A DNA stretch of 64,000 nucleotides, taken from positions 2,080,001-2,144,000 of the forward strand of contig OY759746.1 of NCBI GenBank assembly GCA_963662795.1. The letters are read 5' to 3'. The notes under the pieces are model-generated. The model made no database searches. It worked only from the letters and a program-made list of their open reading frames with translations, and was not told the origin of the DNA. The position numbers were made by a program, and so were the translations under genes. This DNA comes from Spirochaetia bacterium (lineage in GTDB: Bacteria > Spirochaetota > Spirochaetia > CADAEX01). Positions 13,998 to 35,693 of the stretch are shown piece after piece (the stretch's first letter is position 1; each line of letters starts with the position of its first letter).

Positions 13998-14166
13998 GGA
14001 TAACAGAGGATAATGCGCTTCGCTCCCTTTGGTCGCTTGGCCTGCGGCACACATCGTAGTGTTTGAACTACAACATTTATTAACAACGAGTTTTGAAAAA
14101 TATTATATAGCTTTGGAATATTCATTCTTGGACTACGATGCGTCGCTTATCCTCAGGACGTTATCC
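13998..14166 (+). repeat. Outer attC-like site 7, family B
   Basis: GGATAAC...GTTATCC; unit ~13947-14219. Confidence 0.88.
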
Positions 14167-14280
14167 ACAATATCATCGCAAGATGACACCGCCCGGACCT
14201 CCGGCCAACGGGCGAAGAGTAGAAAAAGACATAATGGTTAACCAATTAAACCGATACATTCAAAGAAAGCAGAGGAATAT

Positions 14281-14628
14281 ATGAAAAAAGAAATTGTTAA
14301 AACACAAAAAGGAGAAATAACAGTTTACAGCGATATTGAAGTACCAATATCAGATGCATCAGATTTTCTTGATCTGCTTGCAAATACTAGTACTAAAACA
14401 ATATCACTGGATAAAGAATATTTAGATAATAGATTTTATGAATTAAGCTCTGGTCTAGCAGGAGAAATACTTCAGAAAGTATCAAATTATAGAAGAAGCG
14501 TGATAATTATAGGAGATTTTATCAATATCAATAAAAAGAGTTTAAAAGACTTTATATATGAAAGCAATAAAACAGGGCAGGTTGTATTTGCCAAAGACTT
14601 GGAAGAAGGAATCATTTTGCTGAAGTAA
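14281..14628 (+). CDS. DUF4180-like protein
   Basis: FYELSSGLAGEILQKVSNY...SLKDFIYESN signature. Confidence 0.82.
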   Translation: MKKEIVKTQKGEITVYSDIEVPISDASDFLDLLANTSTKTISLDKEYLDNRFYELSSGLAGEILQKVSNYRRSVIIIGDFININKKSLKDFIYESNKTGQVVFAKDLEEGIILLK

Positions 14629-15060
14629 TTGGAAAAAAGAGGAAAGATTTTGAAGAAAGATTTAATAGCCGCATGTGGAATTAATTGCTCATTATGTACA
14701 GGCTATCAAAGAGAAAAGAATAAATGCGAAGGTTGCAGGAGTGTTGGCAATAAACCAAAGAATTGCTTGAATTGCATAGTAGTAAATTGTAACAAGAGAG
14801 AAGGGAAGGAAGATTTTTGCTTTTCATGCGATACTTATCCATGCCAGAAAATTAAAAAGCTTGCAAAGCGTTATAGTATGCGGTATGGAGTAGATATTTA
14901 TAAAAATCTTGAAAGAATTAAAGCCAAAGGAATAAAGGTATTTGTTGAAGAAGAAAATGAAAAATGGAAATGTATAAAGTGCAAAGCTTTATTATGTATG
15001 CATAGCAAAAATTGTTTAAAATGTGGTGAAGTAAATCCATATTATATTGGAACTTTATAA
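14629..15060 (+). CDS. DUF3795-like Cys-rich protein
   Basis: IAACGINCSLC...CEGCR...FCFSCDTYPC. Confidence 0.8.
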   Translation: MEKRGKILKKDLIAACGINCSLCTGYQREKNKCEGCRSVGNKPKNCLNCIVVNCNKREGKEDFCFSCDTYPCQKIKKLAKRYSMRYGVDIYKNLERIKAKGIKVFVEEENEKWKCIKCKALLCMHSKNCLKCGEVNPYYIGTL

Positions 15061-15084
15061 TAGGTCTTTAAAAAGGATAAAGTA

Positions 15085-15495
15085 ATGATTTACCATATAG
15101 TACCGGAAAAAGAGTATTTGAAATTAGCTGCAAAAGAGAAATATATCCCAAATAATTTCAATGATTTCGGATTTGTACATTGTGCTTTTAAAGTTTCGGT
15201 TTTATCAGTTGCAGATGACTATTATTCAAAAGTAAAGGATAAGCTTATTCTTTTGAAAATAAACCCTGAGAAATTAAAGTCAGATGTAAAATATGAGGAA
15301 GCAACTCCGGAAGAAGGTTTAGGTAAAGAGCATTTAAATACTTCAAATGTTTTTCCACACGTATATGGGCCAGTAGATAATGATGCAGTTGAAGGAGTAG
15401 GCGAATTGGGGAAGAAAGAGGGAAAATATAGCTGGCCAGTTAAATTCATTCCTTTTGCAGAATATTTGGAAACAAATAAGAAGATAAAAGATTAG
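15085..15495 (+). CDS. DUF952-like protein
   Basis: MIYHI...GFVHC...FPHVYGP. Confidence 0.82.
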   Translation: MIYHIVPEKEYLKLAAKEKYIPNNFNDFGFVHCAFKVSVLSVADDYYSKVKDKLILLKINPEKLKSDVKYEEATPEEGLGKEHLNTSNVFPHVYGPVDNDAVEGVGELGKKEGKYSWPVKFIPFAEYLETNKKIKD

Positions 15496-15545
15496 TCCGG
15501 CCTTGGCATTGCCGTGCGGCCTGGACAAGAAGCGATGATACTGGT

Positions 15546-15737
15546 GGATAACAGCGATTATTTCGCTGCGCTCCCTGTGGTCGCTTGGGCTCCTGCCAGT
15601 TGAGCTGGCAGATCGCCATATTTTGTTTTCATAAAACCGGAATGACATGTGTTTTATGCTCTTCAAGTTTGTAAAAACCAAATAAAAGTATTTTAGAGTT
15701 TAGTCACAAAACATCGAATAATCGCGAGACGTTATCC
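15546..15737 (+). repeat. Outer attC-like site 8, family A
   Basis: GGATAAC...GTTATCC; unit ~15495-15789. Confidence 0.9.
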
Positions 15738-15830
15738 ACAATATCATCGCAAGAGAACGCCGCCCGGACCTCCGGCCAACGAGCGAAGATAGGAAATATA
15801 TTAACTTCAAAATTAAGGAACAAATAATTA

Positions 15831-16514
15831 ATGATTACATTCAATGTTTTCGCAAGAGTTTTTAAAATTAAAAGTGGAAATAATATTGGCACTGCTTTTG
15901 CAATTGATTATAGAAAAAAACAATATCTCATAACCGCTTTTCATATAATTTGTAATCCTGCAGAAATAAATTATGTTGAGTTGCAGTATAAAAATGGGTG
16001 GAAAGTTATTGAAGTTGATATTACTGGATTCGGAGACGAAGAAAATGATGTAATTGTTTTGTCCCCTAAGAAGCAAATAGCACCTGAATGGGAATTGCCT
16101 TTATCAAAAGGGAGAATGGTTATAGGCCAAGATGTATATTTTTTAGGATTTCCATATAATATGACATCTGAGGTAAATGATGAAGAATGGCATTTACCAT
16201 ACCCATTAGTTAAGAAAGCTTGTTTATCTGGGAGTATTGATAATAATAAAAAAAGAATATGGTTACTTGACGGGATTAATAATCCGGGGTTTTCAGGTGG
16301 TCCAGTTGTTTTTCACCCTGTAAATTCAAATAATAGTACAGAATTATACATAATGGGATTAATTAGTGGGTTTAGATTTAATGAAGAAAAAATAATACAT
16401 AATGGATATGAAATTGATTCTTACGTAAAAGCAAATACTGGAATTATTTATGCTATATCAGCATCTAATATTCTAGAAATAATTGAAAAAAATGAAAATG
16501 GGTTTAAATTATAG
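15831..16514 (+). CDS. Trypsin-like serine protease
   Basis: Triad motifs GTAF..LITAFH, ENDVIVL, NNPGFSGGPV. Confidence 0.85.
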   Translation: MITFNVFARVFKIKSGNNIGTAFAIDYRKKQYLITAFHIICNPAEINYVELQYKNGWKVIEVDITGFGDEENDVIVLSPKKQIAPEWELPLSKGRMVIGQDVYFLGFPYNMTSEVNDEEWHLPYPLVKKACLSGSIDNNKKRIWLLDGINNPGFSGGPVVFHPVNSNNSTELYIMGLISGFRFNEEKIIHNGYEIDSYVKANTGIIYAISASNILEIIEKNENGFKL

Positions 16515-16570
16515 TAATACTTAAAAAGAATATTTCTTTTACTTTAAATATTATAAAATATAGAGGTTGT

Positions 16571-17185
16571 ATGATAGATATTTTAAAAGAAGCAATAAAT
16601 AAAATACCAGAGCATTATTATAAATTATATAATCCACGTAAATCAAAAGGCCAACTAGTTGATTATTCTAATGAATATGTTTTTCCTGAAAGAAATTATT
16701 GTACAAATTTATATCATCAATTATTAAATATTATAAATGATACAAATCTCGACATAGGAGAGATGTTTTTTCTTGATGAAGAAATATACAAAAAATATTC
16801 AGGTACATACATTAACGATAAAAGTTTTACAAAAACAAAAAATAGTTTAAAATTCTCTAAACAAGGGTTACGGCCAGATTTAGTCTTACATAAATCTCAG
16901 CAATCAAGAGAGAAAGAGGATCAAAAATTAATAATTGAGTGTAAAACTACTAACAATCTTTTAAAATCAGAATTTTTCAGAGATTTCTTTAAATTAAATA
17001 TTTATAAATCCCAACTGAATTTTCAAAATACAGTATATATTATTGTGAATATGAACAAAGAAATAATTAATAAATATCTAGACGAATATTTAAAAAAATA
17101 TTGGAATATTAAAGAGAATGCTATTTATTTATTGATAAAAGAAAGTTATGGAAGTGAAATAATTGAAATAAAGGTTGAGTACTAA
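16571..17185 (+). CDS. Putative PD-(D/E)xK nuclease-fold protein
   Basis: ERNYC..LYH, RPDLVLH...LIIECK, DFFKL. Confidence 0.6.
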   Translation: MIDILKEAINKIPEHYYKLYNPRKSKGQLVDYSNEYVFPERNYCTNLYHQLLNIINDTNLDIGEMFFLDEEIYKKYSGTYINDKSFTKTKNSLKFSKQGLRPDLVLHKSQQSREKEDQKLIIECKTTNNLLKSEFFRDFFKLNIYKSQLNFQNTVYIIVNMNKEIINKYLDEYLKKYWNIKENAIYLLIKESYGSEIIEIKVEY

Positions 17186-17275
17186 TTTATACAGGCAATT
17201 TTTATATAATTTAATAAACATTAGTCCGGCCTTGGCGTTGCCGTGCGGCCCTGGACAAGAAGCGATGATACTGGT

Positions 17276-17449
17276 GGATAACAGCGGTTGAAGCACTACG
17301 CTCGGATTACCTCGCTTGGCCTTCGGCAAACATCGTAGGATTTGAACTACAACTTTTAGAAACATTAAGTTTTTGAAAGACAATAAATAAAAGCATTGAG
17401 TATTCTATTCTTGGTCTACGATGCTTCGCTTAACCGCGGGACGTTATCC
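17276..17449 (+). repeat. Outer attC-like site 9, family D
   Basis: GGATAAC-AGCGGTTGAAGC...GCTTAACCGCGGGAC-GTTATCC; unit ~17224-17501. Confidence 0.88.
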
Positions 17450-17537
17450 ACAATATCATCGCAAGAGACCATCGCCCGGACCTCCGGCCAACGGGCGAAG
17501 AAAATGTGATCATTTGTAAATATATTTATACATAGAA

Positions 17538-17571
17538 ATATATAGTTTTCTAGTTATTTAATATGTTATAT
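17538..17571 (+). other. Cassette-internal attI-like landing site (carrier 2)
   Basis: ATATATAGTTTTCTAGTTATTTAATAT-GTTATAT. Confidence 0.72.
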
Positions 17572-17658
17572 TTAACTCAATTTGAAAAGGAGAGGAAATC
17601 ATAATTATCATATCTAATTGATTTGGGTGTGTTATAATATATCTATTAATAAAAGGAG

Positions 17659-18735
17659 ATGTTTATGAGTGATAATAAGAAATTCCCAAAAGAATTAGAG
17701 ATTCCAAAACCCCCAGAGCGATATAATAAAAATATAAAAGTGAAAATTAGTAAAGATGATGTTGCAAATGTAAATTTATTTATGATGGCATGTGATTGTG
17801 ATGAATATAAAAGTTCGAATAGAAGTGAATATGAAAAATCAGATATTAGAAGAATGTGTCGTCATATCGCAAAATTATATAAGAAAAAAATTAGAACTGA
17901 TAAAATAGATTCAATTAAAACAATGATGATAGAATCTGGTGAAGGGATTAAACCCTCTATAATTTATTTAGAATCAGAAGAATTGGGATATAGTATATGT
18001 ATCGCATTCCAAATAGGATTACCTTGGATAGATGTTTATGCAAAGAATATAAATGGAATTTATAAAAAGCATGTATATAATTATTCAAACAAAGAATGGC
18101 AAGGTAAAATTTCTTATAATAAAGAACTAATAGATGCTTTAGAGTCTTTTATTTTAGAGAATATTCAAGATAATTCAAATGCTAAAGCAAATGAAAAAAA
18201 GAATGGAGAAGAAAGAAATTACCATCAATATGTAGAAATACCAGAACTTAGTGAAGAATATAATAAAGATATCATAGTAAAAGAAGATAATAAGAAATAT
18301 AAATTGAACTTGTTTAAAATGGAATGCTCTTGCAAGGAATTTGATAAGAAAAAACATTATAGGTTAGGTGATTCAAGGAGAATGTGTTTTCATTTAAGAC
18401 GAGAATTTTGGAATACAACAGAGTTTAAGAAATTAAACAAACTCGAGCAAACTCTTATAAAGAATAATTATGGTAATAAAGATAATCTATTTATTTTTGA
18501 ATTAAAAAATGATTTAAGTTTTGCCATTTCATATGATGATGATAGAGAAGAATATTCAAGTTGGTATAATGTAATAGCCAGAAAGAATAATGGGCAATAT
18601 ATCTGTTATGCTTATAATCCTTATAGTAAACGATGGGCAAAAGACAAAAATCCAGAATTATACAAAGAAGAAATTGAGAATTTAGTAAATAGTATTGATA
18701 TTTTCGCTCAGAAAGATATAGACGAAGAATATTAA
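17659..18735 (+). CDS. Protein with two tandem SWIM-like zinc-finger domains
   Basis: Internal duplication NLFMMACDC...RRMCRH and NLFKMECSC...RRMCFH (CxC...CxH). Confidence 0.7.
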   Translation: MFMSDNKKFPKELEIPKPPERYNKNIKVKISKDDVANVNLFMMACDCDEYKSSNRSEYEKSDIRRMCRHIAKLYKKKIRTDKIDSIKTMMIESGEGIKPSIIYLESEELGYSICIAFQIGLPWIDVYAKNINGIYKKHVYNYSNKEWQGKISYNKELIDALESFILENIQDNSNAKANEKKNGEERNYHQYVEIPELSEEYNKDIIVKEDNKKYKLNLFKMECSCKEFDKKKHYRLGDSRRMCFHLRREFWNTTEFKKLNKLEQTLIKNNYGNKDNLFIFELKNDLSFAISYDDDREEYSSWYNVIARKNNGQYICYAYNPYSKRWAKDKNPELYKEEIENLVNSIDIFAQKDIDEEY

Positions 18736-18741
18736 GAGTAA

Positions 18742-18880
18742 ATATAACAAGAGATTTGGAGTAGTCAAAATTTATTGACACGATTCTGGCTAAAGACGTT
18801 CGGGCAATGGCCCTCACTCCAGAATCGCGCCAATTCCGCGAAGACGCGGACCAATTTTGCTACTCAAATCGTCGTTATAA
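18742..18880 (+). repeat. Inner canonical attC
   Basis: ATATAAC-AAGAGATTTGGAGTAG...CTACTCAAATCGTC-GTTATAA; R'' complementary to GTTATAT at 17565. Confidence 0.85.
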
Positions 18881-18949
18881 AAATAGAAACGGGGGAAGTC
18901 CGGCCTTGGCGTTGCCGTGCGGCCTTGGACAAGAAGCGATGATACTGGT

Positions 18950-19141
18950 GGATAACAGCGATTATTTCGCTGCGCTCCCTTTTGGTCGCTTGGGCTCCTG
19001 CCAGTTGAGCTGGCAGAGCGCCATATTTTGTTTTTATAAAACCAGAACAACATGTGTTCTATGCTTTTTATGTTTGAAAAATCAAATAAATGTATTTTAG
19101 AGTTTAACCACAAAACATCGAATAATCGCGAGACGTTATCG
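18950..19141 (+). repeat. Outer attC-like site 10, family A
   Basis: GGATAAC...GTTATCG; unit ~18898-19194. Confidence 0.9.
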
Positions 19142-19236
19142 GCAATGGCTGGGCGAAGAGAACACCGCCCGGACCTCCGGCCCACGGGCGAAGAAAATAT
19201 TAAAACCAAAACAATTATTAAATTAAAGGAAGTAGA

Positions 19237-19638
19237 ATGATGATTAAGAATTATTATTATTTTGTAGTAGGAATACTTTCAATACTTTTTGCGATTACAC
19301 ATGCACTAAATGGACAAGCTGTAATTTTACCTTCTCTAGAAATTGAATTAATAAGCATAGAAATAAGAACAATATTCTTTTATGTGTGGCATATAATATC
19401 AGCTGAAAACATGTTATTTGGAATTTCTTTTTTAATTATGGCATTTTATAAGAAATTGGAAAAAGTTAGATTTACAGCATTTGTTATAGCTGCTTTAATG
19501 GTTTTTCGCTGGGTTATAATATTTTATGGAACTTTTATGTATAATCGCCAAGGACTCAGGAATATAACAATCGATACTGTTGCAATTATAATATTTACAG
19601 CCCTCATTATTTTAGGAACAAGGGTTAAGGATAAGTAA
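19237..19638 (+). CDS. Hypothetical membrane protein (about 4 TM)
   Basis: Four hydrophobic stretches. Confidence 0.72.
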   Translation: MMIKNYYYFVVGILSILFAITHALNGQAVILPSLEIELISIEIRTIFFYVWHIISAENMLFGISFLIMAFYKKLEKVRFTAFVIAALMVFRWVIIFYGTFMYNRQGLRNITIDTVAIIIFTALIILGTRVKDK

Positions 19639-19714
19639 AACTTTATAAACTTGAAAAATATGAGTTGAAATAAAATAGAACTGCCTTTATGCTTATGGCA
19701 GAACAGAGGATAAA

Positions 19715-20266
19715 ATGAATACAGCATTGGTAATAATTGATGTTCAAAATGATTATTTTCCCGGCGGAAGAAAAGAACTAAAAGGAAGTCTTGAAGCTTT
19801 AGAAAACATTCAAAAAGTTATTAACAATTGCAGAGAAAAACATTATAAAATCATCTTTATCAAACATATAGCAGTTAAACCAAATGCAACATTTTTTATA
19901 AATGGAACATCTGGAATTGAAATACATAAAGGAATAGAGCCCGAAGAAAATGATGAGATCATAATAAAAAATTATCCTAATAGTTTTCGGGAGACAGATT
20001 TAAAAGAATATTTAAATAGAAATCAGATCACAGATTTAGTTTTTACCGGCATGATGACTCATATGTGCGTAGATACAACAGTCAGGGTAGCTTTTGATTT
20101 AGGATATAGCAGTATTTTAATTTCAGATTGCTGTGCGACATTAGATTTATCATATGAAAATGAAATGATTGAAGCTAAAGAAGTTCAAAATGCATTTCTT
20201 GCAGCTTTGAATGGAACTTTTTGTAAAATAATAACAACAGAAGATTTTATAAAAGAAAAACAATAA
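19715..20266 (+). CDS. Isochorismatase-like cysteine hydrolase
   Basis: ALVIIDVQNDYF, K..PNSF, GMMTHMCVDTT. Confidence 0.93.
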   Translation: MNTALVIIDVQNDYFPGGRKELKGSLEALENIQKVINNCREKHYKIIFIKHIAVKPNATFFINGTSGIEIHKGIEPEENDEIIIKNYPNSFRETDLKEYLNRNQITDLVFTGMMTHMCVDTTVRVAFDLGYSSILISDCCATLDLSYENEMIEAKEVQNAFLAALNGTFCKIITTEDFIKEKQ

Positions 20267-20350
20267 ACTCTGGTATAACAAAGTACTTGGAATAGAAGAA
20301 GTCCGGCCTTGGCGGTGCCGTGCGGCCTGGACAAGACGCCCAGCCACAGC

Positions 20351-20504
20351 CGATAACAGCGAATGACCGGTTCCGGCTGTTTCTAAGGAAACAGCCTCCA
20401 CCCAAATTGCCGAAATAATACATGTTAAGAATAATGGAATAGAGTATAAACTTTTGGAGTGAAAAACACCATCGGCAACTTCGGTTATTCGCGGGACGTT
20501 ATTT
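20351..20504 (+). repeat. Outer attC-like site 11, family C
   Basis: CGATAAC...GTTATTT; unit ~20301-20557. Confidence 0.88.
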
Positions 20505-20725
20505 GCAATACCTTCGCGAAGAGAAAATCGCCCGGGCCCCTGGCCGACGGGCGAGGATGTGCAGGATAATAATGGTATATGTTGAATAGATACTTTAGGT
20601 GTGTGAAAACAGGTATTATCTAAATAAATACATAAAAGGCTTCTGATAGTTTAATGTGTTACCTGTTGATATAAACCAAAAAATGAACTATATTTAATAA
20701 TATAATGGTTCATTTGGAGGTTTAT

Positions 20726-20980
20726 ATGAAATCTATTACCATACATGGAATTGATAATGAACTAGATAAGAAAATTGCAGAAAAGTCTGTAGAATTTGGG
20801 TTAAGCCAGAACCGAACAGTTAAGCATATCCTGAAAAGTTCATTATTTACTGATAAAAAAGTTTCTAAAAAGGATTCCTTTGCTGAGTTATTTGGTAAAT
20901 GGTCAACAAAAGAGAAAGAAGAATTTGATAAAAAAATCAGTGATTTTGAAGTAATAAATGAAATGGACTGGAAAAAATGA
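20726..20980 (+). CDS. RHH-type antitoxin of VapC (start after GGAGG)
   Basis: MKSITIHGID...; overlaps PIN toxin; paralog at 42276. Confidence 0.8.
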   Translation: MKSITIHGIDNELDKKIAEKSVEFGLSQNRTVKHILKSSLFTDKKVSKKDSFAELFGKWSTKEKEEFDKKISDFEVINEMDWKK

Positions 20981-21375
20981 CCAAGATATTACTTGATACA
21001 AATGCTTATAGTGAGTTTATGTCCGGAAACAAGTTGGTATTTGAATATATTATAGAAGCAGAAATAATCTATGTATCAACCATAATGATCGGAGAACTGT
21101 TTGCAGGTTTTCAGGGCGGGAGAAAATATACAGAAAATAAAGAAGATTTTAAGAAATTCATCAGCAAAGATGGAATAAAAATATTGAATGTTACAATTGA
21201 AACATCAGAAATATTTGGAGAAATCAAGGCGGAACTAAGTAAAAAAGGAAAAATGATACCATTAAATGATATTTGGATTGCTGCTCATACAATAGAAACA
21301 GGTTCAAAATTAATCACATATGATTCACACTTTAAACAGATAAATGCTTTAAGAATTTGGGAAGAATATAAATAG
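20977..21375 (+). CDS. vapC: VapC PIN-domain toxin
   Basis: ILLDTNAY...GEL...PLNDIWIAA...TYDSHF. Confidence 0.93.
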   Translation: MTKILLDTNAYSEFMSGNKLVFEYIIEAEIIYVSTIMIGELFAGFQGGRKYTENKEDFKKFISKDGIKILNVTIETSEIFGEIKAELSKKGKMIPLNDIWIAAHTIETGSKLITYDSHFKQINALRIWEEYK

Positions 21376-21506
21376 GGAAATTGTCCAATTACTGCTTCAA
21401 TAGAGTCAACACTTTGCTTTTTATAGGTTAAGAAAGTATTAAAAAGAAAAGGAAGTCCAGACCTTGGCTCCGCCCTAACGGCCTGGACAAGACGCGAAGG
21501 TACTGC

Positions 21507-21679
21507 AAATAACAGAGGATAATTCGCTACGCTCGGAGTACCTCGCTTGGCCTTCGGCATATTTTGCTATCATTAAAACAGTTCATATTATGTTTTTACT
21601 CTATTTAAATATATTTCTTAAAAACTATCCTGTTGAAAAAGGTTTTAGCAAAACATCGCTTATCCTCAGGACGTTATTT
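21507..21679 (+). repeat. Outer attC-like site 12, family B
   Basis: AAATAAC...GTTATTT; unit ~21455-21732. Confidence 0.88.
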
Positions 21680-21916
21680 GCAATACCTTCGCGAAGAGAA
21701 AATCGCCCGGGCCCCTGGCCGACGGGCGAGGAATACAGTGTAAAGGATTAGAGAATGTTTGAAATCAGGAAGTTTTATAAAGAAAAAGATCTTAATGATT
21801 TACTATTTGTAATTCAGGAATCATTTTTAACTGTCGCTAAAGATTTTAATCTGACAAAAGAAAATGCTCCAACAAATCCGGCATTTATAACAATGGATAA
21901 ATTAAAAGAATCAATT

Positions 21917-22946
21917 GATGGCCAGAAATTCCTAGCGCAATAAACTAATATTGTGACAGGAGTTTTAAGTGAGTTACAAAAGAATGAATCTCAATGAAAG
22001 AATGGCCATTTTTCAGATGATTTACACCAAAAGATTAAAGCTATCACAAATAGCAAGTAATCTTGGCCGAAGAGCTTCAAGTATTACAAGAGAAATAAAA
22101 CGCGGTACTGATGAAGGATATTACAATCCTTTAATTGCAGAGTATGAGCATTTAAGGCAAAGAAAAAATCAGAGCCCCAAATTAAAAATAGACAACAAGT
22201 CATGGCAGCTTATAAAACCCAAACTCCAACTCCGGTGGTCCCCACAGCAAATTGCCAAATGGCTGGAAATAAATTATCCTTCAGATAAAGTGAGTGATAA
22301 AACAATTTATAACTATGTCCATTTCCACATGAGGGGAGAGCTTAAAAAACTAGCGCTTAAAGATTTAAGGCTCAAGGGAAAGAAAAGAAAGAGTGCAAAT
22401 AAGGACGAAAAACGGGGTAAATTAAAAGATATTACCCTTATAGACGAAAGGCCTGCTGAAATTAACTCACGGAAAGTTCCAGGACACTGGGAAGGAGATC
22501 TTCTCATTGGAAAGGACCATAAATCAGCAATCTGCGTAATAGTTGAACGTAAAACTAGGTTTATCCAGCTTGATCTGTTAAAAACATATGATGCAAATAC
22601 AGTAAGAAAAACAATAGAGAAAAGGTTTAAGAAGATATCTCCTCTTCTAAGAAAATCTCTGACTCTTGATCAGGGTAAAGAGAACAGTGAGTTCAAAAAA
22701 CTCAAAGAAAATCTTAATATTGATGTATACTTTTGCCATCCGGCATCTCCCTGGGAAAAGGGAACATGTGAAAACACAAATGGCTTGATTCGTGATATGC
22801 TTGATGAAGTAGATGATTTCAGAAAGCTTTCGCAGTATGATGTATCACGAGTAGCAAGGCTATTGAATGAGAGGCCAAGAAAAACTCTTGACTTCATAAC
22901 ACCTAAAGAAGCTATTGCCAATTTGCGCTAGGAATTTCTGTGCACA
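21917..22946 (+). mobile_element. IS30 family element (1030 bp), 3-bp target duplication ATT
   Basis: IR core CAGAAATTCCTAGCGCAA at both ends; ends defined by comparison with copy at 39443-40472. Confidence 0.9.
21969..22931 (+). CDS. IS30 family transposase
   Basis: WSPQQIA, GHWEGDL, TLDQGKE, PWEKGTCENTNGLIR. Confidence 0.95.
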   Translation: MSYKRMNLNERMAIFQMIYTKRLKLSQIASNLGRRASSITREIKRGTDEGYYNPLIAEYEHLRQRKNQSPKLKIDNKSWQLIKPKLQLRWSPQQIAKWLEINYPSDKVSDKTIYNYVHFHMRGELKKLALKDLRLKGKKRKSANKDEKRGKLKDITLIDERPAEINSRKVPGHWEGDLLIGKDHKSAICVIVERKTRFIQLDLLKTYDANTVRKTIEKRFKKISPLLRKSLTLDQGKENSEFKKLKENLNIDVYFCHPASPWEKGTCENTNGLIRDMLDEVDDFRKLSQYDVSRVARLLNERPRKTLDFITPKEAIANLR

Positions 22947-27562: not shown

Positions 27563-27757
27563 ATGCGTACAAATATTGTAATTGATGACATTTTAATGAA
27601 TGAAGCTATAGCATTATCTGGAAATAAAACAAAGAAAGAAACAGTAGAAGAAGCTTTGAAAATATTGATTCAATTTAAGAATCAATCATCAATAAGATCA
27701 TTTAGGGGAAAATTAAAATGGGAAGGTGATCTTGAGAAAATGAGAAAAGACACATGA
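27563..27757 (+). CDS. vapB: VapB antitoxin
   Basis: MRTNIVIDD...WEGDLEKMR. Confidence 0.9.
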   Translation: MRTNIVIDDILMNEAIALSGNKTKKETVEEALKILIQFKNQSSIRSFRGKLKWEGDLEKMRKDT

Positions 27758-28146: not shown

Positions 28147-28262
28147 AAAAGAAAAAAATATTAATAATATTTAACTAAAGATACCTTGAAAAGACCCACT
28201 TTCGCACGTCCTGTGCTCAAGCGAAGAGGGGCGAAATTAGGAGGAAGACGGCGCGGTTCATC

Positions 28263-28417
28263 GTATAACAGCGAATGGCCGGTTTCGGCTGTTTCTGAAG
28301 AAACCAGCCTCAACCCAAATTGCCGGAATAAATAGTGGTACAAATTGATGATTACAAAATAAGCTTGAAGGGTAACAAATAACAGCGGCAACTTCGGTCA
28401 TTCGCGGGACGTTATAA
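28263..28417 (+). repeat. Outer attC-like site 16, family C
   Basis: GTATAAC...GTTATAA; unit ~28197-28469. Confidence 0.88.
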
Positions 28418-28562
28418 GCAATGTTCCCGCAAGAGGAGATCGCCCGGACCTCCGGCCGACGGGCGAGGACATGCAATTTAATGATTATAATTTTAAATAT
28501 AAAACACTACAAATAAAAATAGTTAATAATGAATATTTTATCGCAAATGTATTGAGATAATC

Positions 28563-29792
28563 ATGAATGACATTAAGTACAAGTATGCTTTAGATGAACA
28601 AAATAATGTAATATCAATATCAAGTATTAATGCAGTTAATTTTAAAAATAATTATATTTGCCCTTCGTGTAATAAAAAGCTAAGGCCCAGAATAGGGAAT
28701 ATTAGAGTACATCATTTTTATCATCCACATAAAAATGATGTATATTCCTGTAGTATTGAAAGTTACTTACATACGATTTCCAAAAAACTACTTTATGAAA
28801 AATTAATAAAATTATTTAATGAAAAAAAATCATATATTGTAAATATTTATAATAAAATTATTGTTTTTGACACAAGCGGCAAAGTTATTAAAACAGAAAT
28901 TAGTAAGGAAAAATCACCTTATGATATTTTAAATAATTCTGTAAAAATATATTTAGAAAAAGTAATTGGAGAATACAAGCCTGATATATTGATTGAATAT
29001 GTAAATATAGAACCACTTTTTCTTGAGATAAAAGTCACGCATAAAAGTTCGATCAAAAAGATAATTAATAATAGAATTATAGAAATAAATATAACTGAAG
29101 AAGCAGATATAAGACGAATACTTAACCACTTAGATGAAAATAAAGACGAATTAATAAATTTTGATAAATATCGTAAAATAATTGAAAAATATATTAGTAC
29201 TGTTTCTGAAATACCTAAGCAAAATGTTACTGAAGAAATAAAAAAGCAAGTAATTAAAATTGAGAGAAAAATCACTTATTCTGAAAAAAAAGAAATATTA
29301 ACTAAAATATGTGAGGATTTTAATAAACATGCTTTAGTACTGTCTGTAAAGTATGTTTTTGATAAAATACTTGGCGGGAATTACAGAGAACGTATTACAA
29401 CAATATTTTTAAGCGATTTTTATAGCAGTATAAAAATTATTGAAAAAGATGCAATATACTGTGAATTAGCAAATATCGATAATAAGAAATTAATTATTGG
29501 TTTTAGTGATTTAAATAAAGAAGTATATAAGAATAATTTATATGTAATACTATATGAAAAAAATACTTTTTATCAAATACTAGATAGTGTAAATGTTATG
29601 AAAAATAATGTTGTTATTGATTTTAACAATTTTAATGATAATTACATTTTTAAAATATCATGCTTTATGCCTAAAGGGCATTATTCATCAATAATTAAAG
29701 AGTTCAAGTATAGTGAATTTATAAAACTTATAAACAAAAATGAAATAGAATTAATAAATATTGAATGCATACGCAAACTACAAAATATATAA
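28563..29792 (+). CDS. CoiA-like zinc-finger + PD-(D/E)xK nuclease protein
   Basis: YICPSC...HHFYH...ESYLH; YKPDILI...FLEIKVTH. Confidence 0.72.
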   Translation: MNDIKYKYALDEQNNVISISSINAVNFKNNYICPSCNKKLRPRIGNIRVHHFYHPHKNDVYSCSIESYLHTISKKLLYEKLIKLFNEKKSYIVNIYNKIIVFDTSGKVIKTEISKEKSPYDILNNSVKIYLEKVIGEYKPDILIEYVNIEPLFLEIKVTHKSSIKKIINNRIIEINITEEADIRRILNHLDENKDELINFDKYRKIIEKYISTVSEIPKQNVTEEIKKQVIKIERKITYSEKKEILTKICEDFNKHALVLSVKYVFDKILGGNYRERITTIFLSDFYSSIKIIEKDAIYCELANIDNKKLIIGFSDLNKEVYKNNLYVILYEKNTFYQILDSVNVMKNNVVIDFNNFNDNYIFKISCFMPKGHYSSIIKEFKYSEFIKLINKNEIELINIECIRKLQNI

Positions 29793-29884
29793 AAGGTTAT
29801 ATAGAGCGAGTAATTACTTGATAGTAGTTGGAGTCCAGCCTTGGCTTCCAGCCGTGCGGCCTGGACAAGAAGCGGGAACACAGC

Positions 29885-30038
29885 TTATAACAGCGAATGG
29901 CCGGTTCCGGCTGTTTCTAAGGAAGCAGCCTCCACCCAAATTGCCGAAATAATAAATGTTAAGAATAATGGAATAGAGTATAAACTTTTGAAGTAAAAGA
30001 CACCATCGGCAACTTCGGTCATTAGCGGGACGTTATCC
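29885..30038 (+). repeat. Outer attC-like site 17, family C
   Basis: TTATAAC...GTTATCC; unit ~29833-30090. Confidence 0.88.
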
Positions 30039-30127
30039 ACAATATCATCGCAAGAGGAAATCGCCCGGACCTCCGGCCAACGGGCGAAGAAAATAGAATC
30101 TGCTGTATATTATACTTTAGACATAAC

Positions 30128-30161
30128 ATATATAGTTTACTAGTTATTTAATATATTAGGT
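30128..30161 (+). other. Cassette-internal attI-like landing site (carrier 3; core mutated to ATT)
   Basis: ATATATAGTTTACTAGTTATTTAATAT-ATTAGGT. Confidence 0.65.
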
Positions 30162-30183
30162 TCACTTAAAATAAATAAAGCTG

Positions 30184-31179
30184 GTGGTTATGAAAGCGAG
30201 ATATCAACAGGTATTAGATAAAAGTAAAGCGGCATTATTATCCGCAATTGAGCTTTATAATAAGCCACAGTATCTATATCGTGAAGAATCTTTTGCAATA
30301 TTATGTATAAATGCATATGAATTACTTTTTAAAGCAAAATGGCTTCATCTTCATAATAATAAATTAAACAGCCTATATACTTATGAATATAGAATTACAA
30401 AGAGTGGAAAAAAGTCAAAGAAAAAAACAATAAAAACAACAAGAAGCAATAATCCATTAACCCGCGAAATTAGTTATCTAGCAAATAAACTAATCGAACA
30501 GAAATTTTTAAATGGTATATTATGGGCTAATGTTCAATTACTTTTAGAAATTAGAGATTGTTCAATTCATTATTACAATAAAAATAATGCTTTATTACTA
30601 AAATTACATCAGGTTGCTTTAGCTTCAGTTAAAAATTTTGGAATTTTATTAAGAAACTGGTTTCCTGATGAATTGTCTGATTTTTCTACATCAATATTGC
30701 CAATTGCAATTATGGATAATGTACAGGAGAGTGATATTATTAGTTTAGAAAAAGATGAAGTACAAATAATACAGTTTATCCAAGCATATGAAGAAACCTT
30801 CAATGATGAAGAATCAGAATTTTCAATTTCACTTTCATTATCGTTAAACCTAAAAAAAGCAAAACCTGGTGAAGCCGTGATAGTAAGAATTGGAAATACA
30901 TCAGATATTAAATTACCAACAGTTAGGCTTTCAGATGAGCAAATTAGAGAGAGATATCCAATAACATATAATGAATTGAGTCGGAAATTAAGGTTAAGAT
31001 ATAGTGATTTTAAAATGGACTCTAAGTATCATGAATTGAGAAAGGCAATAACCAATAATAAAAAGTATTGTTATATTAGAGAGCTAGATCCAGGAAATGA
31101 AAAAACTCAAAAAAAACAATTCTATAGTAATGCAATAATTGAATATTTTGACCAAAATTATGAAAAAAAAGGAATCTAA
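30184..31179 (+). CDS. DUF3644-like (HEPN-related) protein
   Basis: KSKAALLSAIELYNKP...REESFAIL..NAYELLFKA; EIRDCSIH. Confidence 0.75.
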   Translation: MVMKARYQQVLDKSKAALLSAIELYNKPQYLYREESFAILCINAYELLFKAKWLHLHNNKLNSLYTYEYRITKSGKKSKKKTIKTTRSNNPLTREISYLANKLIEQKFLNGILWANVQLLLEIRDCSIHYYNKNNALLLKLHQVALASVKNFGILLRNWFPDELSDFSTSILPIAIMDNVQESDIISLEKDEVQIIQFIQAYEETFNDEESEFSISLSLSLNLKKAKPGEAVIVRIGNTSDIKLPTVRLSDEQIRERYPITYNELSRKLRLRYSDFKMDSKYHELRKAITNNKKYCYIRELDPGNEKTQKKQFYSNAIIEYFDQNYEKKGI

Positions 31180-31229
31180 TAACCTTTCACTGCGTTTGGG
31201 CGCAATTACAGGTTAAGCGAATGTTAAAA
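31174..31229 (+). repeat. Degenerate/shortened inner attC
   Basis: ATCTAAT...CAGGTTAAGCGAAT-GTTAAAA; right arm resembles the 13811 site. Confidence 0.6.
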
Positions 31230-31304
31230 AAAATAAAAATAGAAACGGGGGAAGTCCGGCCTTGGCGTTGCCGTGCGGCCTGGACAAGAAGCGATGATAC
31301 TAGT

Positions 31305-31476
31305 GGATAACAGAGGATACTGCGCTACGCTCGGAGTACCTCGCTTGGCCTGCGGCACACATCGTAGATTTTGAACTAAAACATCTATAAACAACAAATT
31401 TTTGAAGAAAAATACTGCAACCTTGAAATATTAACTCTTAGGCTACGATGCGTCGCTTATCCTCAGGACGTTATCC
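31305..31476 (+). repeat. Outer attC-like site 18, family B
   Basis: GGATAAC...GTTATCC; unit ~31254-31528. Confidence 0.88.
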
Positions 31477-31565
31477 ACAATATCATCGCAAGAGAACGCC
31501 GCCCGGACCTCCGGCCAACGGGCGAAGAAAATAGAATTTGCTGTATAATATACTTTATACATATC

Positions 31566-31599
31566 ATATATGGTTTTCTAGTTATTTAATATGTTATGT
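31566..31599 (+). other. Cassette-internal attI-like landing site (carrier 4)
   Basis: ATATATGGTTTTCTAGTTATTTAATAT-GTTATGT. Confidence 0.72.
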
Positions 31600-31626
31600 T
31601 TCAAAAAAGTTGGAGGTTAATAATTA

Positions 31627-33801
31627 ATGAGTACTTTAATTATTGATTTATCTCAATTTCCAGAAAGATTCAAAGAAAATAGTAGAAAAATTACAATCAC
31701 CAATAATGTTAATTTTATCTTTGGTAAAAATGGGACAGGAAAGACTACTATTTCAAATGTGATTTCAGATAATTTCTCAAGCAAATATGATATACATGTT
31801 TTTAATGGATTTGATGGAGTCGTTGGCGAGAATTATAGATTAGATGCAGTTTCATTAGGAACGATAAATGCAACAATTCAAAATGAAATTAATACAATTA
31901 CTGAAGAAATAAAAGTGATTTCAAGTAATATTGAAAAACCAATAGATAAAAAAGAAAACCTATTTACGAAATATGAGAAATCAAGAAATGTTTGTGATAA
32001 GCAAAAAAAAGAGCTTGAAGATTTCTATACCAATTCCGCGAGAGAAATTAAAAATAAGAAATGTGAAAACATTAATATAGCTGTCACTTCGTATAATAAA
32101 GACAAACTTAAGAATGAAATTAATTTAGCAAAAGGACTCACCTCTAGTGAAGAAACAGAATATAGAGCTACGATAAAGGCCGAAGAAAAAAAAGAACCAG
32201 AAAATGTTAAATTCCCTGTAATTAATTTAAATGAAATACTTGAGAATACAAATAGTATTCTCAGAAAATATGTGTCGAGCCAGCAAATAATTGAAGAGAT
32301 AGATAATAATATTGATAAACAAAACTTTGCAAAAGAAGGGATGAGAATCCATAGCCGAGATTCTGCAGAAAAATGTGCATTTTGTGGAAATATTATTGAT
32401 GAGAATAGATGGAAACTTCTTGGTAATTATTTTAATGATGAAGTAAAGAAATATGAAAAAGAGATAGATGATTATATCAATCTAATGAATCAGAAGTTAT
32501 TAAAAATCACTGATCTTAAAGAAACAAATCCAGATCATTTTTATGTAAGTTTTCAAAATCAAATTAATAAAATAAATACCCAGATTCGAGATTTAAAAGA
32601 AAAATACAAAGACTTCATTACTTTAATGGTTCAAAATCTAAAAGAAAAAAAGAAAAATCTTTTTAGTACTGATAAAGAAATATCATATATTATTCCAAGT
32701 GATTTTTCTGAAATACAAACTAATTATGATGATATTCTAAGAGAAAATAACACTTTTTCAAAACAACTCAGTGAAGAACAAGAAAAAGCAAGAACTGCCT
32801 TACGTTTATTCGAAATAAAAAAACTATCAGACGAATTTAAATATACTGAAAAACTAATTAAATATAATCATTCTTTAGAGTTAGAAGATAAAGCTAGAGA
32901 TAATTTGAATTCTGAAAAAGAATTATTAGAATCAAAAAAGAATAAGGTCAATGAGTTGTTATTGCAAACTAAGGATGAGCGTATAATCGCTGAACGTATT
33001 AATAAAAAATTACGAAATATGGGAGTTTCATCATTTTCTCTTGAATTAGTCGTAGATGATGACAAAGATCAAAAGGGGCAATATAAAATCAAAGGCTATA
33101 ATGGCAATATTCGTTCAATAATTGAACTTAGTAAAGGCGAGAAAAATATAATAGCTTTTTTATACTTTATTCTTTCTCTTGAAGAACTCAAGACAGAGGA
33201 AAAACCAAAAATAATAGTATTAGATGATCCAATGACTAGCAATGATGATACGATGCAATATCTTATGATTGGAGAAGCCCAAAGACTTTATCATGGAATA
33301 TCTGGGGAGAACTTCTTTATTAATCTAACTCATAATTGTCATTTTTATCTCAATATAAGGCCCAATACAACTCGTAAATATAAAATTAATGGTGATGATG
33401 TTAGTTATTATGAAAAATATGGCAATTATCATCTTTATTCTGATGGAAAACAAACGACATTTTATAAAATCATGAAAGGGAAAAAGGATTTCAAGACAAA
33501 CTATGAAATGTTATGGATTGAATTACAATTCCTTTATGATTCTAATGAACCAAATCTTATGCTTAATGTTTGTAGGAAAATATGTGAAACATATATGTCA
33601 TTTACAAAGCTAGGTATAGAACATTTTTATGGTGAGAATACAAATGCTAAAAAATTATTTGATGTAAATCAACATTCTATTGATGATATGGATGCAGAAC
33701 AGAATGGAAGAACAAAGGAAGAAATACGTGATATTTTAAAAGTATTATTTGAACAAAATAATGCACTTCAGCATTTTGAGAATTATTTTCATAGTGTTTA
33801 A
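31627..33801 (+). CDS. RloC-like AAA_13 ABC ATPase (zinc hook, putative C-terminal HEPN/anticodon nuclease)
   Basis: GKNGTGKT, central CAFC hook, LSKGEK, VLDDPMTS, LTHN, NVCRKICE...NQHS. Confidence 0.78.
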   Translation: MSTLIIDLSQFPERFKENSRKITITNNVNFIFGKNGTGKTTISNVISDNFSSKYDIHVFNGFDGVVGENYRLDAVSLGTINATIQNEINTITEEIKVISSNIEKPIDKKENLFTKYEKSRNVCDKQKKELEDFYTNSAREIKNKKCENINIAVTSYNKDKLKNEINLAKGLTSSEETEYRATIKAEEKKEPENVKFPVINLNEILENTNSILRKYVSSQQIIEEIDNNIDKQNFAKEGMRIHSRDSAEKCAFCGNIIDENRWKLLGNYFNDEVKKYEKEIDDYINLMNQKLLKITDLKETNPDHFYVSFQNQINKINTQIRDLKEKYKDFITLMVQNLKEKKKNLFSTDKEISYIIPSDFSEIQTNYDDILRENNTFSKQLSEEQEKARTALRLFEIKKLSDEFKYTEKLIKYNHSLELEDKARDNLNSEKELLESKKNKVNELLLQTKDERIIAERINKKLRNMGVSSFSLELVVDDDKDQKGQYKIKGYNGNIRSIIELSKGEKNIIAFLYFILSLEELKTEEKPKIIVLDDPMTSNDDTMQYLMIGEAQRLYHGISGENFFINLTHNCHFYLNIRPNTTRKYKINGDDVSYYEKYGNYHLYSDGKQTTFYKIMKGKKDFKTNYEMLWIELQFLYDSNEPNLMLNVCRKICETYMSFTKLGIEHFYGENTNAKKLFDVNQHSIDDMDAEQNGRTKEEIRDILKVLFEQNNALQHFENYFHSV

Positions 33802-33824
33802 ATACGATTATAAAACAAGATGAA

Positions 33825-33900
33825 ACATAACAATCATTTGGAGTTGACGCCTTCTCGGCGCTGCGCTTCTACGATGGCGCAACTCAAATGGGCGTTATAA
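33825..33900 (+). repeat. Inner canonical attC (76 bp)
   Basis: ACATAAC-AATCAT-TTGGAGTTG...CAACTCAA-ATGGGC-GTTATAA; TGAAACATAAC is the exact reverse complement of GTTATGTTTCA at 31593. Confidence 0.88.
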
Positions 33901-33970
33901 AAAATAGAAACGGGAGAAGTCCGGCCTTGGCGTTGCCGTGCGGCCTTGGACAAGAAGCGATGATACTGGT

Positions 33971-34142
33971 GGATAACAGAGGATACTGCGCTACGCTCGG
34001 AGTACCTCGCTTGGCCTACGGCATATTTTGCTATCATCAAAAATGAATAGTAAAAGTTAAACTTTTTTCAAAATTAACAAAGTAGACATAAATGTTTTAG
34101 AGTATGAACCGCAAAACATCGCGTATCCTCAGGACGTTATCC
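33971..34142 (+). repeat. Outer attC-like site 19, family B
   Basis: GGATAAC...GTTATCC; unit ~33919-34195. Confidence 0.88.
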
Positions 34143-34256
34143 ACAATATCATCGCAAGATGACACCGCCCGGACCTCCGGCCAACGGGCGAAGAGTAGAA
34201 AAAGACATAATGGTTAACCAATTAAACCGATACATTCAAAGAAAGCAGAGGAATAT

Positions 34257-34604
34257 ATGAAAAAAGAAATTGTTAAAACACAAAAAGGAGAAATAACAGT
34301 TTACAGCGATATTGAAGTACCAATATCAGATGCATCAGATTTTCTTGATCTGCTTGCAAATACAAATACTAAAACAATATCACTGGATAAAGAATATTTA
34401 GATAATAGATTTTATGAATTAAGCTCTGGTCTAGCAGGAGAAATACTTCAGAAAGTATCAAATTATAGAAGAAGCGTGATAATTATAGGAGATTTTATCA
34501 ATATCAATAAAAAGAGTTTAAAAGACTTTATATATGAAAGCAATAAAACAGGGCAGGTTGTATTTGCCAAAGACTTGGAAGAAGGAATCATTTTGCTGAA
34601 GTAA
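34257..34604 (+). CDS. DUF4180-like protein (copy 2)
   Basis: One aa difference from 14281..14628. Confidence 0.82.
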   Translation: MKKEIVKTQKGEITVYSDIEVPISDASDFLDLLANTNTKTISLDKEYLDNRFYELSSGLAGEILQKVSNYRRSVIIIGDFININKKSLKDFIYESNKTGQVVFAKDLEEGIILLK

Positions 34605-35036
34605 TTGGAAAAAAGAGGAAAGATTTTGAAGAAAGATTTAATAGCTGCATGTGGAATTAATTGCTCATTATGTACAGGCTATCAAAGAGAAAAGAATAAA
34701 TGCGAAGGTTGCAGGAGTGTTGGCAATAAACCAAAGAATTGCTTGAATTGCATAGTAGTAAATTGTAACAAGAGAGAAGGGAAGGAAGATTTTTGCTTTT
34801 CATGCGATACTTATCCATGCCAGAAAATTAAAAGGCTTGCAAATCGTTATAGTATGCGGTATGGAGTAGATATTTATAAAAATCTTGAAAGAATTAAAGC
34901 CAAAGGAATAAAGGTATTTGTTGAAGAAGAAAATGAAAAATGGAAATGTATAAAGTGCAAAGCTTTATTATGTATGCATAGCAAAAATTGTTTAAAATGT
35001 GGTGAAGTAAATCCATATTATATTGGAACTTTATAA
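34605..35036 (+). CDS. DUF3795-like protein (copy 2)
   Basis: Two aa differences from 14629..15060. Confidence 0.8.
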   Translation: MEKRGKILKKDLIAACGINCSLCTGYQREKNKCEGCRSVGNKPKNCLNCIVVNCNKREGKEDFCFSCDTYPCQKIKRLANRYSMRYGVDIYKNLERIKAKGIKVFVEEENEKWKCIKCKALLCMHSKNCLKCGEVNPYYIGTL

Positions 35037-35060
35037 TAGGTCTTTAAAAAGGATAAAGTA

Positions 35061-35471
35061 ATGATTTACCATATAGTACCGGAAAAAGAGTATTTGAAAT
35101 TAGCTGCAAAAGAGAAATATATCCCAAATAATTTCAATGATTTCGGATTTGTACATTGTGCTTTTAAAGTTTCGGTTTTATCAGTTGCAGATGACTATTA
35201 TTCAAAAGTAAAGGATAAGCTTATTCTTTTGAAAATAAACCCTGAGAAATTAAAGTCAGATGTAAAATATGAGGAAGCAACTCCGGAAGAAGGTTTAGGT
35301 AAAGAGCATTTAAATACTTCAAATGTTTTTCCACACGTATATGGGCCAGTAGATAATGATGCAGTTGAAGGAGTAGGCGAATTGGGGAAGAAAGAGGGAA
35401 AATATAGCTGGCCAGTTAAATTCATTCCTTTTGCAGAATATTTGGAAACAAATAAGAAGATAAAAGATTAG
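35061..35471 (+). CDS. DUF952-like protein (copy 2)
   Basis: Protein identical to 15085..15495. Confidence 0.82.
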   Translation: MIYHIVPEKEYLKLAAKEKYIPNNFNDFGFVHCAFKVSVLSVADDYYSKVKDKLILLKINPEKLKSDVKYEEATPEEGLGKEHLNTSNVFPHVYGPVDNDAVEGVGELGKKEGKYSWPVKFIPFAEYLETNKKIKD

Positions 35472-35521
35472 TCCGGCCTTGGCATTGCCGTGCGGCCTGG
35501 ACAAGAAGCGATGATACTGGT

Positions 35522-35693
35522 GGATAACAGCGGTTCAAGCGCTGCGCTCGGAGTACCTCGCTTGGGCTTCGCCACATTTTACTTTTATTTAATCCAGGAA
35601 ACATCTATTTTATAGTTTTCAAGTTTAGCAATACGTTTAAATGGGTTTTTAAGTTTTTACCGTAAAACGTCGCTTAACCGCAGGACGTTATCC
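35522..35693 (+). repeat. Outer attC-like site 20, family D
   Basis: GGATAAC-AGCGGTTCAAGC...GCTTAACCGCAGGAC-GTTATCC; unit ~35471-35738. Confidence 0.88.

Follow-up and report, generated by a model that had tools for sequence, protein, structure and literature searches.

A large cassette array with barcoded junctions

The window analysed here, a stretch of 64,000 nucleotides (nt; G000:C1:2080001-2144000) from the genome of a Spirochaetia bacterium, lies within a large array of integron-like gene cassettes that are separated from each other by attC-like sites. The host genome, G000, is a single 3.93-Mb contig (C1) without N, and the array occupies C1:1848872-2179988, i.e. ~331 kb or 8.4% of the genome, with all junctions on one strand. 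Classical units consisting of a cassette body and the site core downstream of it move in this array by a crossover in the GTT of the R' box, and in addition the core is frequently changed at or next to the R'' box. A strict structural parse for AAC...GTT with 8-mers that are complementary at fixed offsets returned 195 candidates, 186 of them true junctions, and a looser scan added two complete junctions as well as three R''-only and three R'-only fragments, some of them beside insertion sequence (IS) elements. This makes 188 complete junctions on the single chromosome contig, 37 of which (35 strict, two from the looser scan) are within the window. The median cassette unit has 1328 nt, and the GC content is 31.9% in the window and ~32% in the array, compared to 39.7% in the genome.

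The last open reading frame (ORF) of a cassette is followed by a 3' chassis in which a GC-rich hairpin (hp1), the motif AAGAAG, a barcode of ~15 nt and ATAAC (R'') come in this order. The core, which begins thereafter, has 133-181 nt, starts with AGNG, continues with an L'' box with one extra T, a variable hairpin and L', and ends with GRRAC. The 5' chassis of the next cassette then leads from GTTAT (R') over the complementary barcode, AAGAG, a variable linker and the hairpin hp2 to the next ribosome-binding site. All these elements can be seen on the + strand at one junction of the window, with the 3' chassis at 15495..15552, as read from the junction sequence, and the 5' chassis of the next cassette at 15731..15790, as deduced from sequence and fold. 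The hp2 motif alone is found 161 times on the + strand, from C1:1850162 to C1:2180018, and not once on the - strand.

In 167 of 185 cassettes, the barcodes at the two ends of the same cassette are reverse complements of each other. Across a junction, the barcodes match in 49/186 cases, compared to 188/2000 (9.4%) for random pairs, and cassettes of the same barcode thus cluster in runs. There are about 25-35 barcode classes. Presumably, the barcode restores a long R-box stem only when the two ends of one cassette join. The idea that the barcode stem might be a second L box was ruled out by geometry, as the barcode is 5' of AAC and the L box is 3' of it. Clear mismatches between start and end barcodes are found in 9 of 185 cassettes array-wide, and in the window they concern the intervals 28411-31311, 43233-45457 and 61053 onward; some of the mismatch intervals contain an IS or an initially missed junction.

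Where neighbouring cassettes have a common barcode, the bottom strand folds, by prediction, as one rod, composed of barcode stem, R box, a 4-nt bulge and L stem. The minimum free energy of this rod is -63 kcal/mol, versus -36.2 +/- 3.8 kcal/mol for shuffled sequences (z -7.1), and 0 of 100 shuffles were as stable. The traits of attC hairpins are present, namely a 5-bp R box with complementary L boxes at 186 junctions and single unpaired bases on the '' arm. In the predicted rod of the - strand at 15490-15800, the R box is flanked on the same arm by two single unpaired bases, of which one belongs to the L stem and the other to the barcode stem, and the irregularity of the barcode stem (AAT opposite ACTG) recurs from one barcode class to the next and also in other genomes. 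As a rule the cores stay whole, with L'' complementary to L' in 186 of the 188 complete junctions; the two exceptions are 29889-30032, which has extra point mismatches, and 62531-62692, which is a true chimera. At 30% distance the cores fall into 18 clusters, the largest of which are families A (n=59), B (n=46) and C (n=31). Family letters differ between tellings, and family B of the present analysis is family A of an earlier annotation that was made from the letters of the window only (the sequence-only reading).

A cassette whose ORFs match DUF4180, DUF3795 and DUF952 in Pfam is present twice in the window, at 14160..15552 and 34136..35528 (both on the + strand and extending from the G of R' to the C of R'', with 5' chassis, ORFs and 3' chassis). 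As the sequence-only reading had claimed, the copies are nearly identical (1388/1393 positions in an ungapped alignment) and are followed by different cores: copy 1 by a 178-nt core of family B (AGCGATTATTTCGC... type, 46 in the array) at 15553..15730 (+), and copy 2 by a 158-nt core of family F at 35529..35686 (+), to which the closest other core of the genome is no more than 78% alike. These downstream cores are 61% alike. The upstream cores, 155 nt of family A at 14005..14159 (+) and 158 nt of family D at 33978..34135 (+), also differ as had been noticed, being 62% alike. A third copy outside the window, at C1:2058232, is followed by a family B core that is 99% alike to the core of copy 1, and the core change can therefore be assigned to the copy at 34136.

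A second example named by the sequence-only reading, an antitoxin-VapC cassette with different cores behind its two copies, is equally real, and it has to be read as two lineages. The cassette at 20498..21513 (+) is composed of a small ORF and a PIN (VapC-like) gene, and it is related to the cassette at 42054..43054 (+) by 941 of 1017 identical positions (92.5%). The cores that follow, 159 nt of family E at 21514..21672 (+) and 178 nt of family B at 43055..43232 (+), are 58% alike. The near-identical twin of each lineage keeps its core: the twin of the first, at C1:1940549, is 100% identical and has the same core (E/E, 100%), and the twin of the second, at C1:2173702, is 99.9% identical and has a core that is 98% alike (B/B). 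In these cassettes the second ORF encodes a PIN domain, and the first ORF had no match in Pfam. Finally, a rare-barcode cassette at 60120..60894 (+) has a 100% identical twin at C1:2162573 with a core of another family.

Pairing of cassette bodies and cores

To compare bodies without their flanks, the chassis were removed and all cassette interiors were compared all-against-all by BLAST; bodies were regarded as near-identical at identities of at least 97% with at least 95% coverage, and cores as the same at identities of at least 85%. The 24 near-identical pairs that resulted form 16 groups. Of these pairs, 15 agree in the downstream core and two in the upstream core, with a background of 63/598. 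Counted by groups, eight keep their downstream core, seven have cores of different families, and one has cores of the same family that are only 80% alike. Among the 22 pairs whose bodies are 85-97% identical, 3 agree in the downstream core, which is the background level. In concordant pairs, the identity spans the whole core and stops inside the R' GTT, as for example in GTTA|G versus GTTA|T. A classical G|TT crossover at R' thus fits 8/16 groups, whereas the other 8/16 stop at R'' or have the core that is 80% alike. As half of the groups keep the core and have their boundaries in the R' GTT, the movement of body plus downstream core still takes place, and the exchange of cores must be a second process. 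The proposal of the sequence-only reading that cores are exchanged independently of bodies holds, as seven of the 16 groups changed family and the linkage between barcode and core is near zero (see below), but the classical rule still operates beside it.

Core families were also tabulated against cassettes in other genomes, as had been suggested. In G014, which belongs to the same genus, all three shared cassettes with a readable downstream core (89-97% identical) differ from G000 in core family (G instead of B, C instead of A, and F instead of A). G011, which belongs to another genus, shares four cassettes: the core is still of family C in the first and still A-like in the second, it belongs to another family in the third, and the fourth cassette has different barcodes at both ends. 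The rule that a cassette carries the same barcode at its two ends also holds in a metagenome-assembled genome (MAG) with a 54%-identical recombinase, and in G011 and G012, which belong to the same family.

Could the discordant pairs be a product of the assembly? Near-identical bodies of 1.4 kb with repeated flanks could in principle be misjoined, and repeats of 0.6-2.6 kb with 99-100% identity are indeed abundant in the array. Public contigs over the region, which stem from one sediment run and from three runs on the same organism, break at every flank (e.g. at 34165-35514), and none of them bridges a junction between body and core; the joints given for them pass through shared flanks and were left aside. 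Nevertheless, chimerism is very improbable, as the genome is one contig of 3.93 Mb without N, and as the discordance recurs in seven groups as well as in G014 and G011, which were assembled separately. Moreover, random misjoins with flanks of other classes would break the barcode match that is seen in 167/185 cassettes, although this test is blind to misjoins among flanks of the same barcode.

Mapping of the switch points, which the sequence-only reading had put forward as a check, placed them at the base of the hairpin. In all seven discordant groups, the identity begins at GAC|GTTAT and stops after ATAAC AG, and variants that are private to a group are kept in both copies. Such private variants include one in the hp1 loop of the DUF cassette, one in the stem of cassettes c3 and c30, a T at -9 from AAC that c47 and c104 have in common but that is absent from all other members listed for their barcode class, and likewise a C at -5 from AAC that c164 and c175 have in common. 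As the single-nucleotide polymorphisms (SNPs) at -5 and -9 are retained, only 5-10 nt are left for a crossover. The barcode class of c164 and c175 has one further member, c1, which differs at -5 and is followed by a core of a third family, and thus there is no donor of the same class for this switch in the genome. A SNP 41 nt before R'' that distinguishes c41 from c162 was considered as the end of a conversion tract, which was rejected as it is private to c41.

These switch points also bear on the idea that no exchange took place at all, and that bodies with their chassis were fitted repeatedly with cores when cassettes were made, so that the copies were born with different cores. A capacity of large arrays to make new cassettes themselves has been proposed (PMC4889954), and the 46 family B cores, many of them 97-100% alike, stand behind unrelated genes and many barcode classes. 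Such a repeated making is nonetheless very improbable. In discordant copies both chassis agree throughout, down to private SNPs and linkers, and the copies therefore derive from one finished cassette and not from independent constructions; in addition, the change in the group with three copies can be assigned to one of them.

The independence of cores becomes clear also when junctions are compared across the array. For 126 non-redundant junctions, we calculated the chance of a common marker given another common marker, relative to the baseline. This linkage is 5.1x baseline between hp1 loop and barcode, 2.1x between barcode and linker, 3.6x between L'' and core centre, and 3.0x between core centre and L', but it drops to 1.2x between barcode and L'', and to 1.1x between L' and the next barcode; mutual-information z scores agree with these ratios. 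The boundary at R'' is therefore as free as that at R', which is the known crossover. Cores are dispersed over all barcode classes. When cores of at least 99% identity are found behind non-homologous bodies, the barcode is common in 1 of 34 pairs and different in the other 33, and for cores that are 97-99% alike it is common in 5 of 210 pairs, with an expectation of 9.9%.

A homologous recombination by RecA, be it a crossover, an unequal exchange, a deletion or a gene conversion in the flank that same-barcode cassettes share, is the most serious rival explanation of the core changes, although on balance a somewhat unlikely one. A crossover in the last 20-45 nt before R'' would join a body to the core of another cassette of the same barcode, and the border would look sharp only because core families diverge directly after AAC AG. 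The sequence-only reading had assumed a flank of ~55 bp common to same-barcode cassettes, which is seldom reached in full length: among non-homologous pairs of the same barcode, 26/1628 agree fully over their terminal 63 nt, 253/1628 over 37 nt and 1001/1628 over 23 nt. The shorter tracts would still offer substrates, and same-barcode cassettes are often adjacent (see the 49/186 junctions above). The depletion of pairs that have both the barcode and a near-identical core in common (1/34 and 5/210) fits a deletion between long direct repeats, and other homology-type rearrangements are present in the array. However, recombination in the flank is unable to move cores between barcode classes, where the linkage of 1.2x contrasts with the 5.1x between hp1 loop and barcode, the class of c164 and c175 has no donor in the genome, and the private SNPs leave hardly any room for the crossover. 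A further argument comes from the internal conserved block of the cores. Among 12344 pairs of junctions with different L types, tracts of at least 20 nt identity occur at this block in 841 and at R'' in 704, and yet a chimera at the internal block is seen in just 1 of 188 junctions; this comparison is not decisive, since longer tracts are commoner at R''. Neither of the two mechanisms that had been proposed, strand exchange on the AAC side or recombination in the flank, is proven, but the private SNPs at -5 and -9, the barcode class without donor, and the spread of cores across all classes let us lean towards an exchange on the AAC side.

The adjacent recombinase and a possible second exchange

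A gene for a tyrosine recombinase of 339 amino acids (C1:1846782-1847801, outside the window) ends ~140 nt before the first cassette and is on the same strand. This first cassette begins with ..GGAG|TTATACG.., and its barcode matches that at its own end. The recombinase reaches 200 bits with TIGR02249 (cut-off 265) and 214.5 bits with NF040815 (cut-off 220), and its scores with the XerC (175 bits) and XerD (173 bits) profiles are both far under the cut-offs; to XerD (1a0p) and to a XerC-like protein (4a8e) it gives single collinear matches. In an alignment with IntI1 from an Escherichia coli plasmid, 41 IntI1 residues in two blocks stand opposite gaps in the recombinase and five relatives, the same region is missing in comparison to VchIntIA (PDB 2a3v), whose residues 173-238 correspond to only 24 residues of the recombinase, and all six proteins share an N-terminal extension of ~70 residues that is absent from IntI1. 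The catalytic residues R, K, H, R, H and Y are invariant in them. As judged from these alignments, the recombinase is an enzyme without the IntI-specific additional domain (I2).

The association of such recombinases with arrays is not restricted to this genome. The nearest relatives are encoded in Spirochaetia MAGs (79% and 54% identity), followed by Bacteroidota, and Treponema records are not among the best 80 recombinase loci. At these best 80 homologues, strict attC-like hairpins are ~13x denser downstream (21 in 341 kb) than upstream (3 in 640 kb), and 14 loci have a downstream attC-like site, compared to 3 with an upstream site. The array of G011 is ~3.5 kb away from a 45%-identical I2-less homologue, and in G012, 266 nt separate the start of the array from a recombinase of this short I2-less type that is 34% identical and divergently oriented. 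Among 20 genomes of the order, hp2-type cassettes are found in five, a close homologue of the recombinase in four, and a canonical IntI above cut-off in three. The only canonical intI gene of G000, in which the additional domain is present, has a frameshift and stop codons and lies at C1:412371-413302, 1.43 Mb away from the array.

Tentatively, we regard it as the best reading, and as quite a possible one, that a recombinase carries out exchanges on the R''/L'' arm of folded hairpins and thereby swaps cores. This second exchange would involve the opposite arm of the folded hairpin, where R'' and L'' meet directly behind AAC, so that the core, i.e. the L box with the hairpin tip, changes its partner, and both barcoded R-box halves stay with their cassettes. 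In one conceivable route, a complete two-arm exchange between two hairpins that are folded on one strand would topologically swap their tips, and an arrangement X1-H1-X2-H2-X3 would become X1-H2-X2-H1-X3, with the bodies in place and the cores swapped. In the other, a top-strand recombination of R'' with R'' would delete the old core together with neighbouring cassettes. In classical integrons, I2 and the extrahelical bases prevent an attack at the L box and a second-strand exchange (PMC4792948), and the first route becomes plausible because the adjacent recombinase lacks I2, the domain that recognises the extrahelical bases and blocks L-box cleavage there. The swapping of tips between two folded hairpins is our own proposal, and the accessible part of that article does not describe it.

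The same position at the base of the hairpin could be explained without any recombinase, if replication switched its template at the base of the extruded core hairpin, with a polymerase that stalls at R'' and continues on another junction by means of the ATAAC-AG microhomology alone. The long and stable rod with its z score of -7.1, the location of the switch points and the independence from the barcode class all fit such a slippage. It is improbable nevertheless, as junctions without hairpin or with half a hairpin, which slippage would leave, were not found, apart from the three R''-only and three R'-only fragments, and as a clean replacement requires two switches in register.

Several observations weigh against a recombinase-mediated exchange at R''. 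Some rearrangements of the array are of a homology type and keep recombination in the flank viable. The core at 62531..62692 (+), a family G core with a foreign 5' end and mismatched L boxes, has taken its first ~15 nt from another L-box type, and it is the only such chimera in 188 junctions. The cores behind c74 and c96, whose bodies are 100% identical, differ only in a central patch of ~45 nt at the hairpin tip (core C1:1977476-1977636 versus the core after c96, a cassette that starts at C1:2017177, both outside the window). In c120, which is also outside the window, the 5' barcode does not match the 3' barcode, whereas the barcodes of its G011 homologue match, and thus c120 switched near hp2. 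Tracts of at least 30 nt identity are commoner at R'' (583/12344) than at the internal conserved block (103/12344), so that recombination in the flank could be favoured there without any site-specific step. As all cores start with AGNG, the switch can be placed no finer than within a window of ~10 nt, and that a recombinase acts at R'' itself is something that we infer from sequence comparisons. The reciprocity of a tip swap cannot be traced in one genome, the family B cores being too alike, and for the top-strand route it is unfavourable that classical IntI recombines top strands 1000-10000 times less than bottom strands (PMC5027507). Furthermore, the cores retain the extrahelical T although the adjacent enzyme lacks I2. 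Intact canonical intI genes exist in G010-G012, far from the arrays (the gene is broken in G000), and the canonical IntI of this bacterial family could act on the arrays in trans; the canonical intI of G011 has no attC-like sites within 20 kb.

A wider reading, which we find doubtful, would be that a family of I2-less tyrosine recombinases runs integron-like arrays in Spirochaetota and Bacteroidota and swaps whole attC cores, with the barcode stem and not the core defining the cassette. Without I2, the cleavage of the second hairpin arm would be unblocked, which would permit a complete exchange between two folded sites, and such enzymes might represent a living intermediate or an alternative between Xer and integron integrases.

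With respect to replication, the GC skew has its minimum at 1.40 Mb and its maximum at 3.43 Mb and is +0.13 in the array, and the top strand is therefore the lagging-strand template, with the attC bottom strand on the leading-strand template. Hairpins of the top strand are thus expected to form readily. Most large chromosomal integrons have the same strand arrangement relative to replication (PMC5371416). An Rfam scan of window positions 13000-44000 matched no family. Promoter-like hexamers occur in AT-rich stretches of the cores, and the idea that cores are carriers of terminators and promoters was tried and remained unsupported, as a scan of 13900-21800 gave 50 promoter-like sites, compared to 40.5 +/- 6.3 in shuffled sequences, and 0 terminators.

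As to the cargo, the products of two large cassettes of the window are a UvrD-type helicase that carries a topoisomerase zinc ribbon (990 amino acids, 10832-13804) and an AAA_13 ATPase (724 amino acids, 31627-33801), respectively. Such domains are often found in anti-phage systems. Contigs from a sediment metagenome run are ~99% identical to the cassette at 31508-33943 (e.g. 1262 nt with 10 differences and 1 gap), and close relatives of single cassettes therefore exist elsewhere. IS elements lie inside cassettes: an rve-type transposase gene (320 amino acids) is present twice in opposite orientations, at 21969-22931 (+) and 39458-40420 (-), and a DDE_Tnp_1 transposase gene (385 amino acids) is found at 43369-44526 (-). 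More copies of these insertion sequences are present elsewhere in the array.

Relation to known integron systems

Two rules are generally associated with integrons: a cassette carries its own attC site, and the IntI-specific I2 domain makes the recombination of hairpins workable. In the array described here, the first rule is obeyed by half of the recent copies, and over longer times not at all, and the second is broken by the conserved recombinase next to the array. If the exchange of cores is enzymatic, genes can acquire new attC partners, a point of relevance for the unsolved question of how cassettes arise, and the system could be an intermediate form as sought in the “chicken-and-egg” discussion about I2 and attC (PMC4792948). 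If only homologous recombination is at work, the array is still a clear natural example of a modular reassortment of sites, chassis and genes, and a warning for tools that infer the origin of cassettes from attC types. A literature search for barcoded R boxes, core exchange and I2-less array integrases found none of them, the attC tables of PMC3607928 and PMC4889954 being outside its coverage.

Compared with sedentary chromosomal integrons of the Vibrio superintegron type, the array shares co-oriented cassettes in the hundreds, attC sites that fold and contain AAC/GTT core sites as well as L boxes, a unit of body and downstream attC, toxin-antitoxin cassettes, and the location of the attC bottom strand on the leading-strand template. 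With its 188 junctions it also exceeds the threshold of >19 attC sites for a chromosomal array (quoted in PMC4889954). It differs by a neighbouring recombinase that lacks the additional domain of IntI and is co-oriented with the cassettes, by an R box that is extended by a cassette-specific barcode stem of ~15 bp, by cores that are unlinked from cassettes, and by core diversity, as 18 clusters with three large families are found here, whereas large arrays are reported to be homogeneous (PMC4889954). The inverted-integrase integrons of Treponema are similar with respect to the spirochaete host, the co-oriented integrase and the several attC types per array (PMC3607928). Their attC sites have 63-132 bp, unlike those described here, and their integrase is treated as IntI, and the sections of that article at our disposal mention no exchange of barcodes or cores.

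By the criterion of an IntI domain, the array would resemble a CALIN (cluster of attC sites lacking integron integrases), as there is no adjacent integron integrase and the sole canonical intI is a remote pseudogene. It is unlike a CALIN in that the first cassette has an intact tyrosine recombinase as its neighbour at a distance of ~140 nt, an association that is kept in relatives, and in that there are 188 junctions, compared to an average of 5 attC sites in CALIN (PMC4889954). A mechanistic parallel exists in the second-strand exchange of IntI1 between two attI sites (Escudero et al. 2016, PMC4792948), which shows that recombinases of the integron type can complete a two-strand exchange. That reaction used double-stranded attI, and an exchange through the L box of attC was reported to be extremely rare, which differs from the exchange between folded hairpins that is proposed here.

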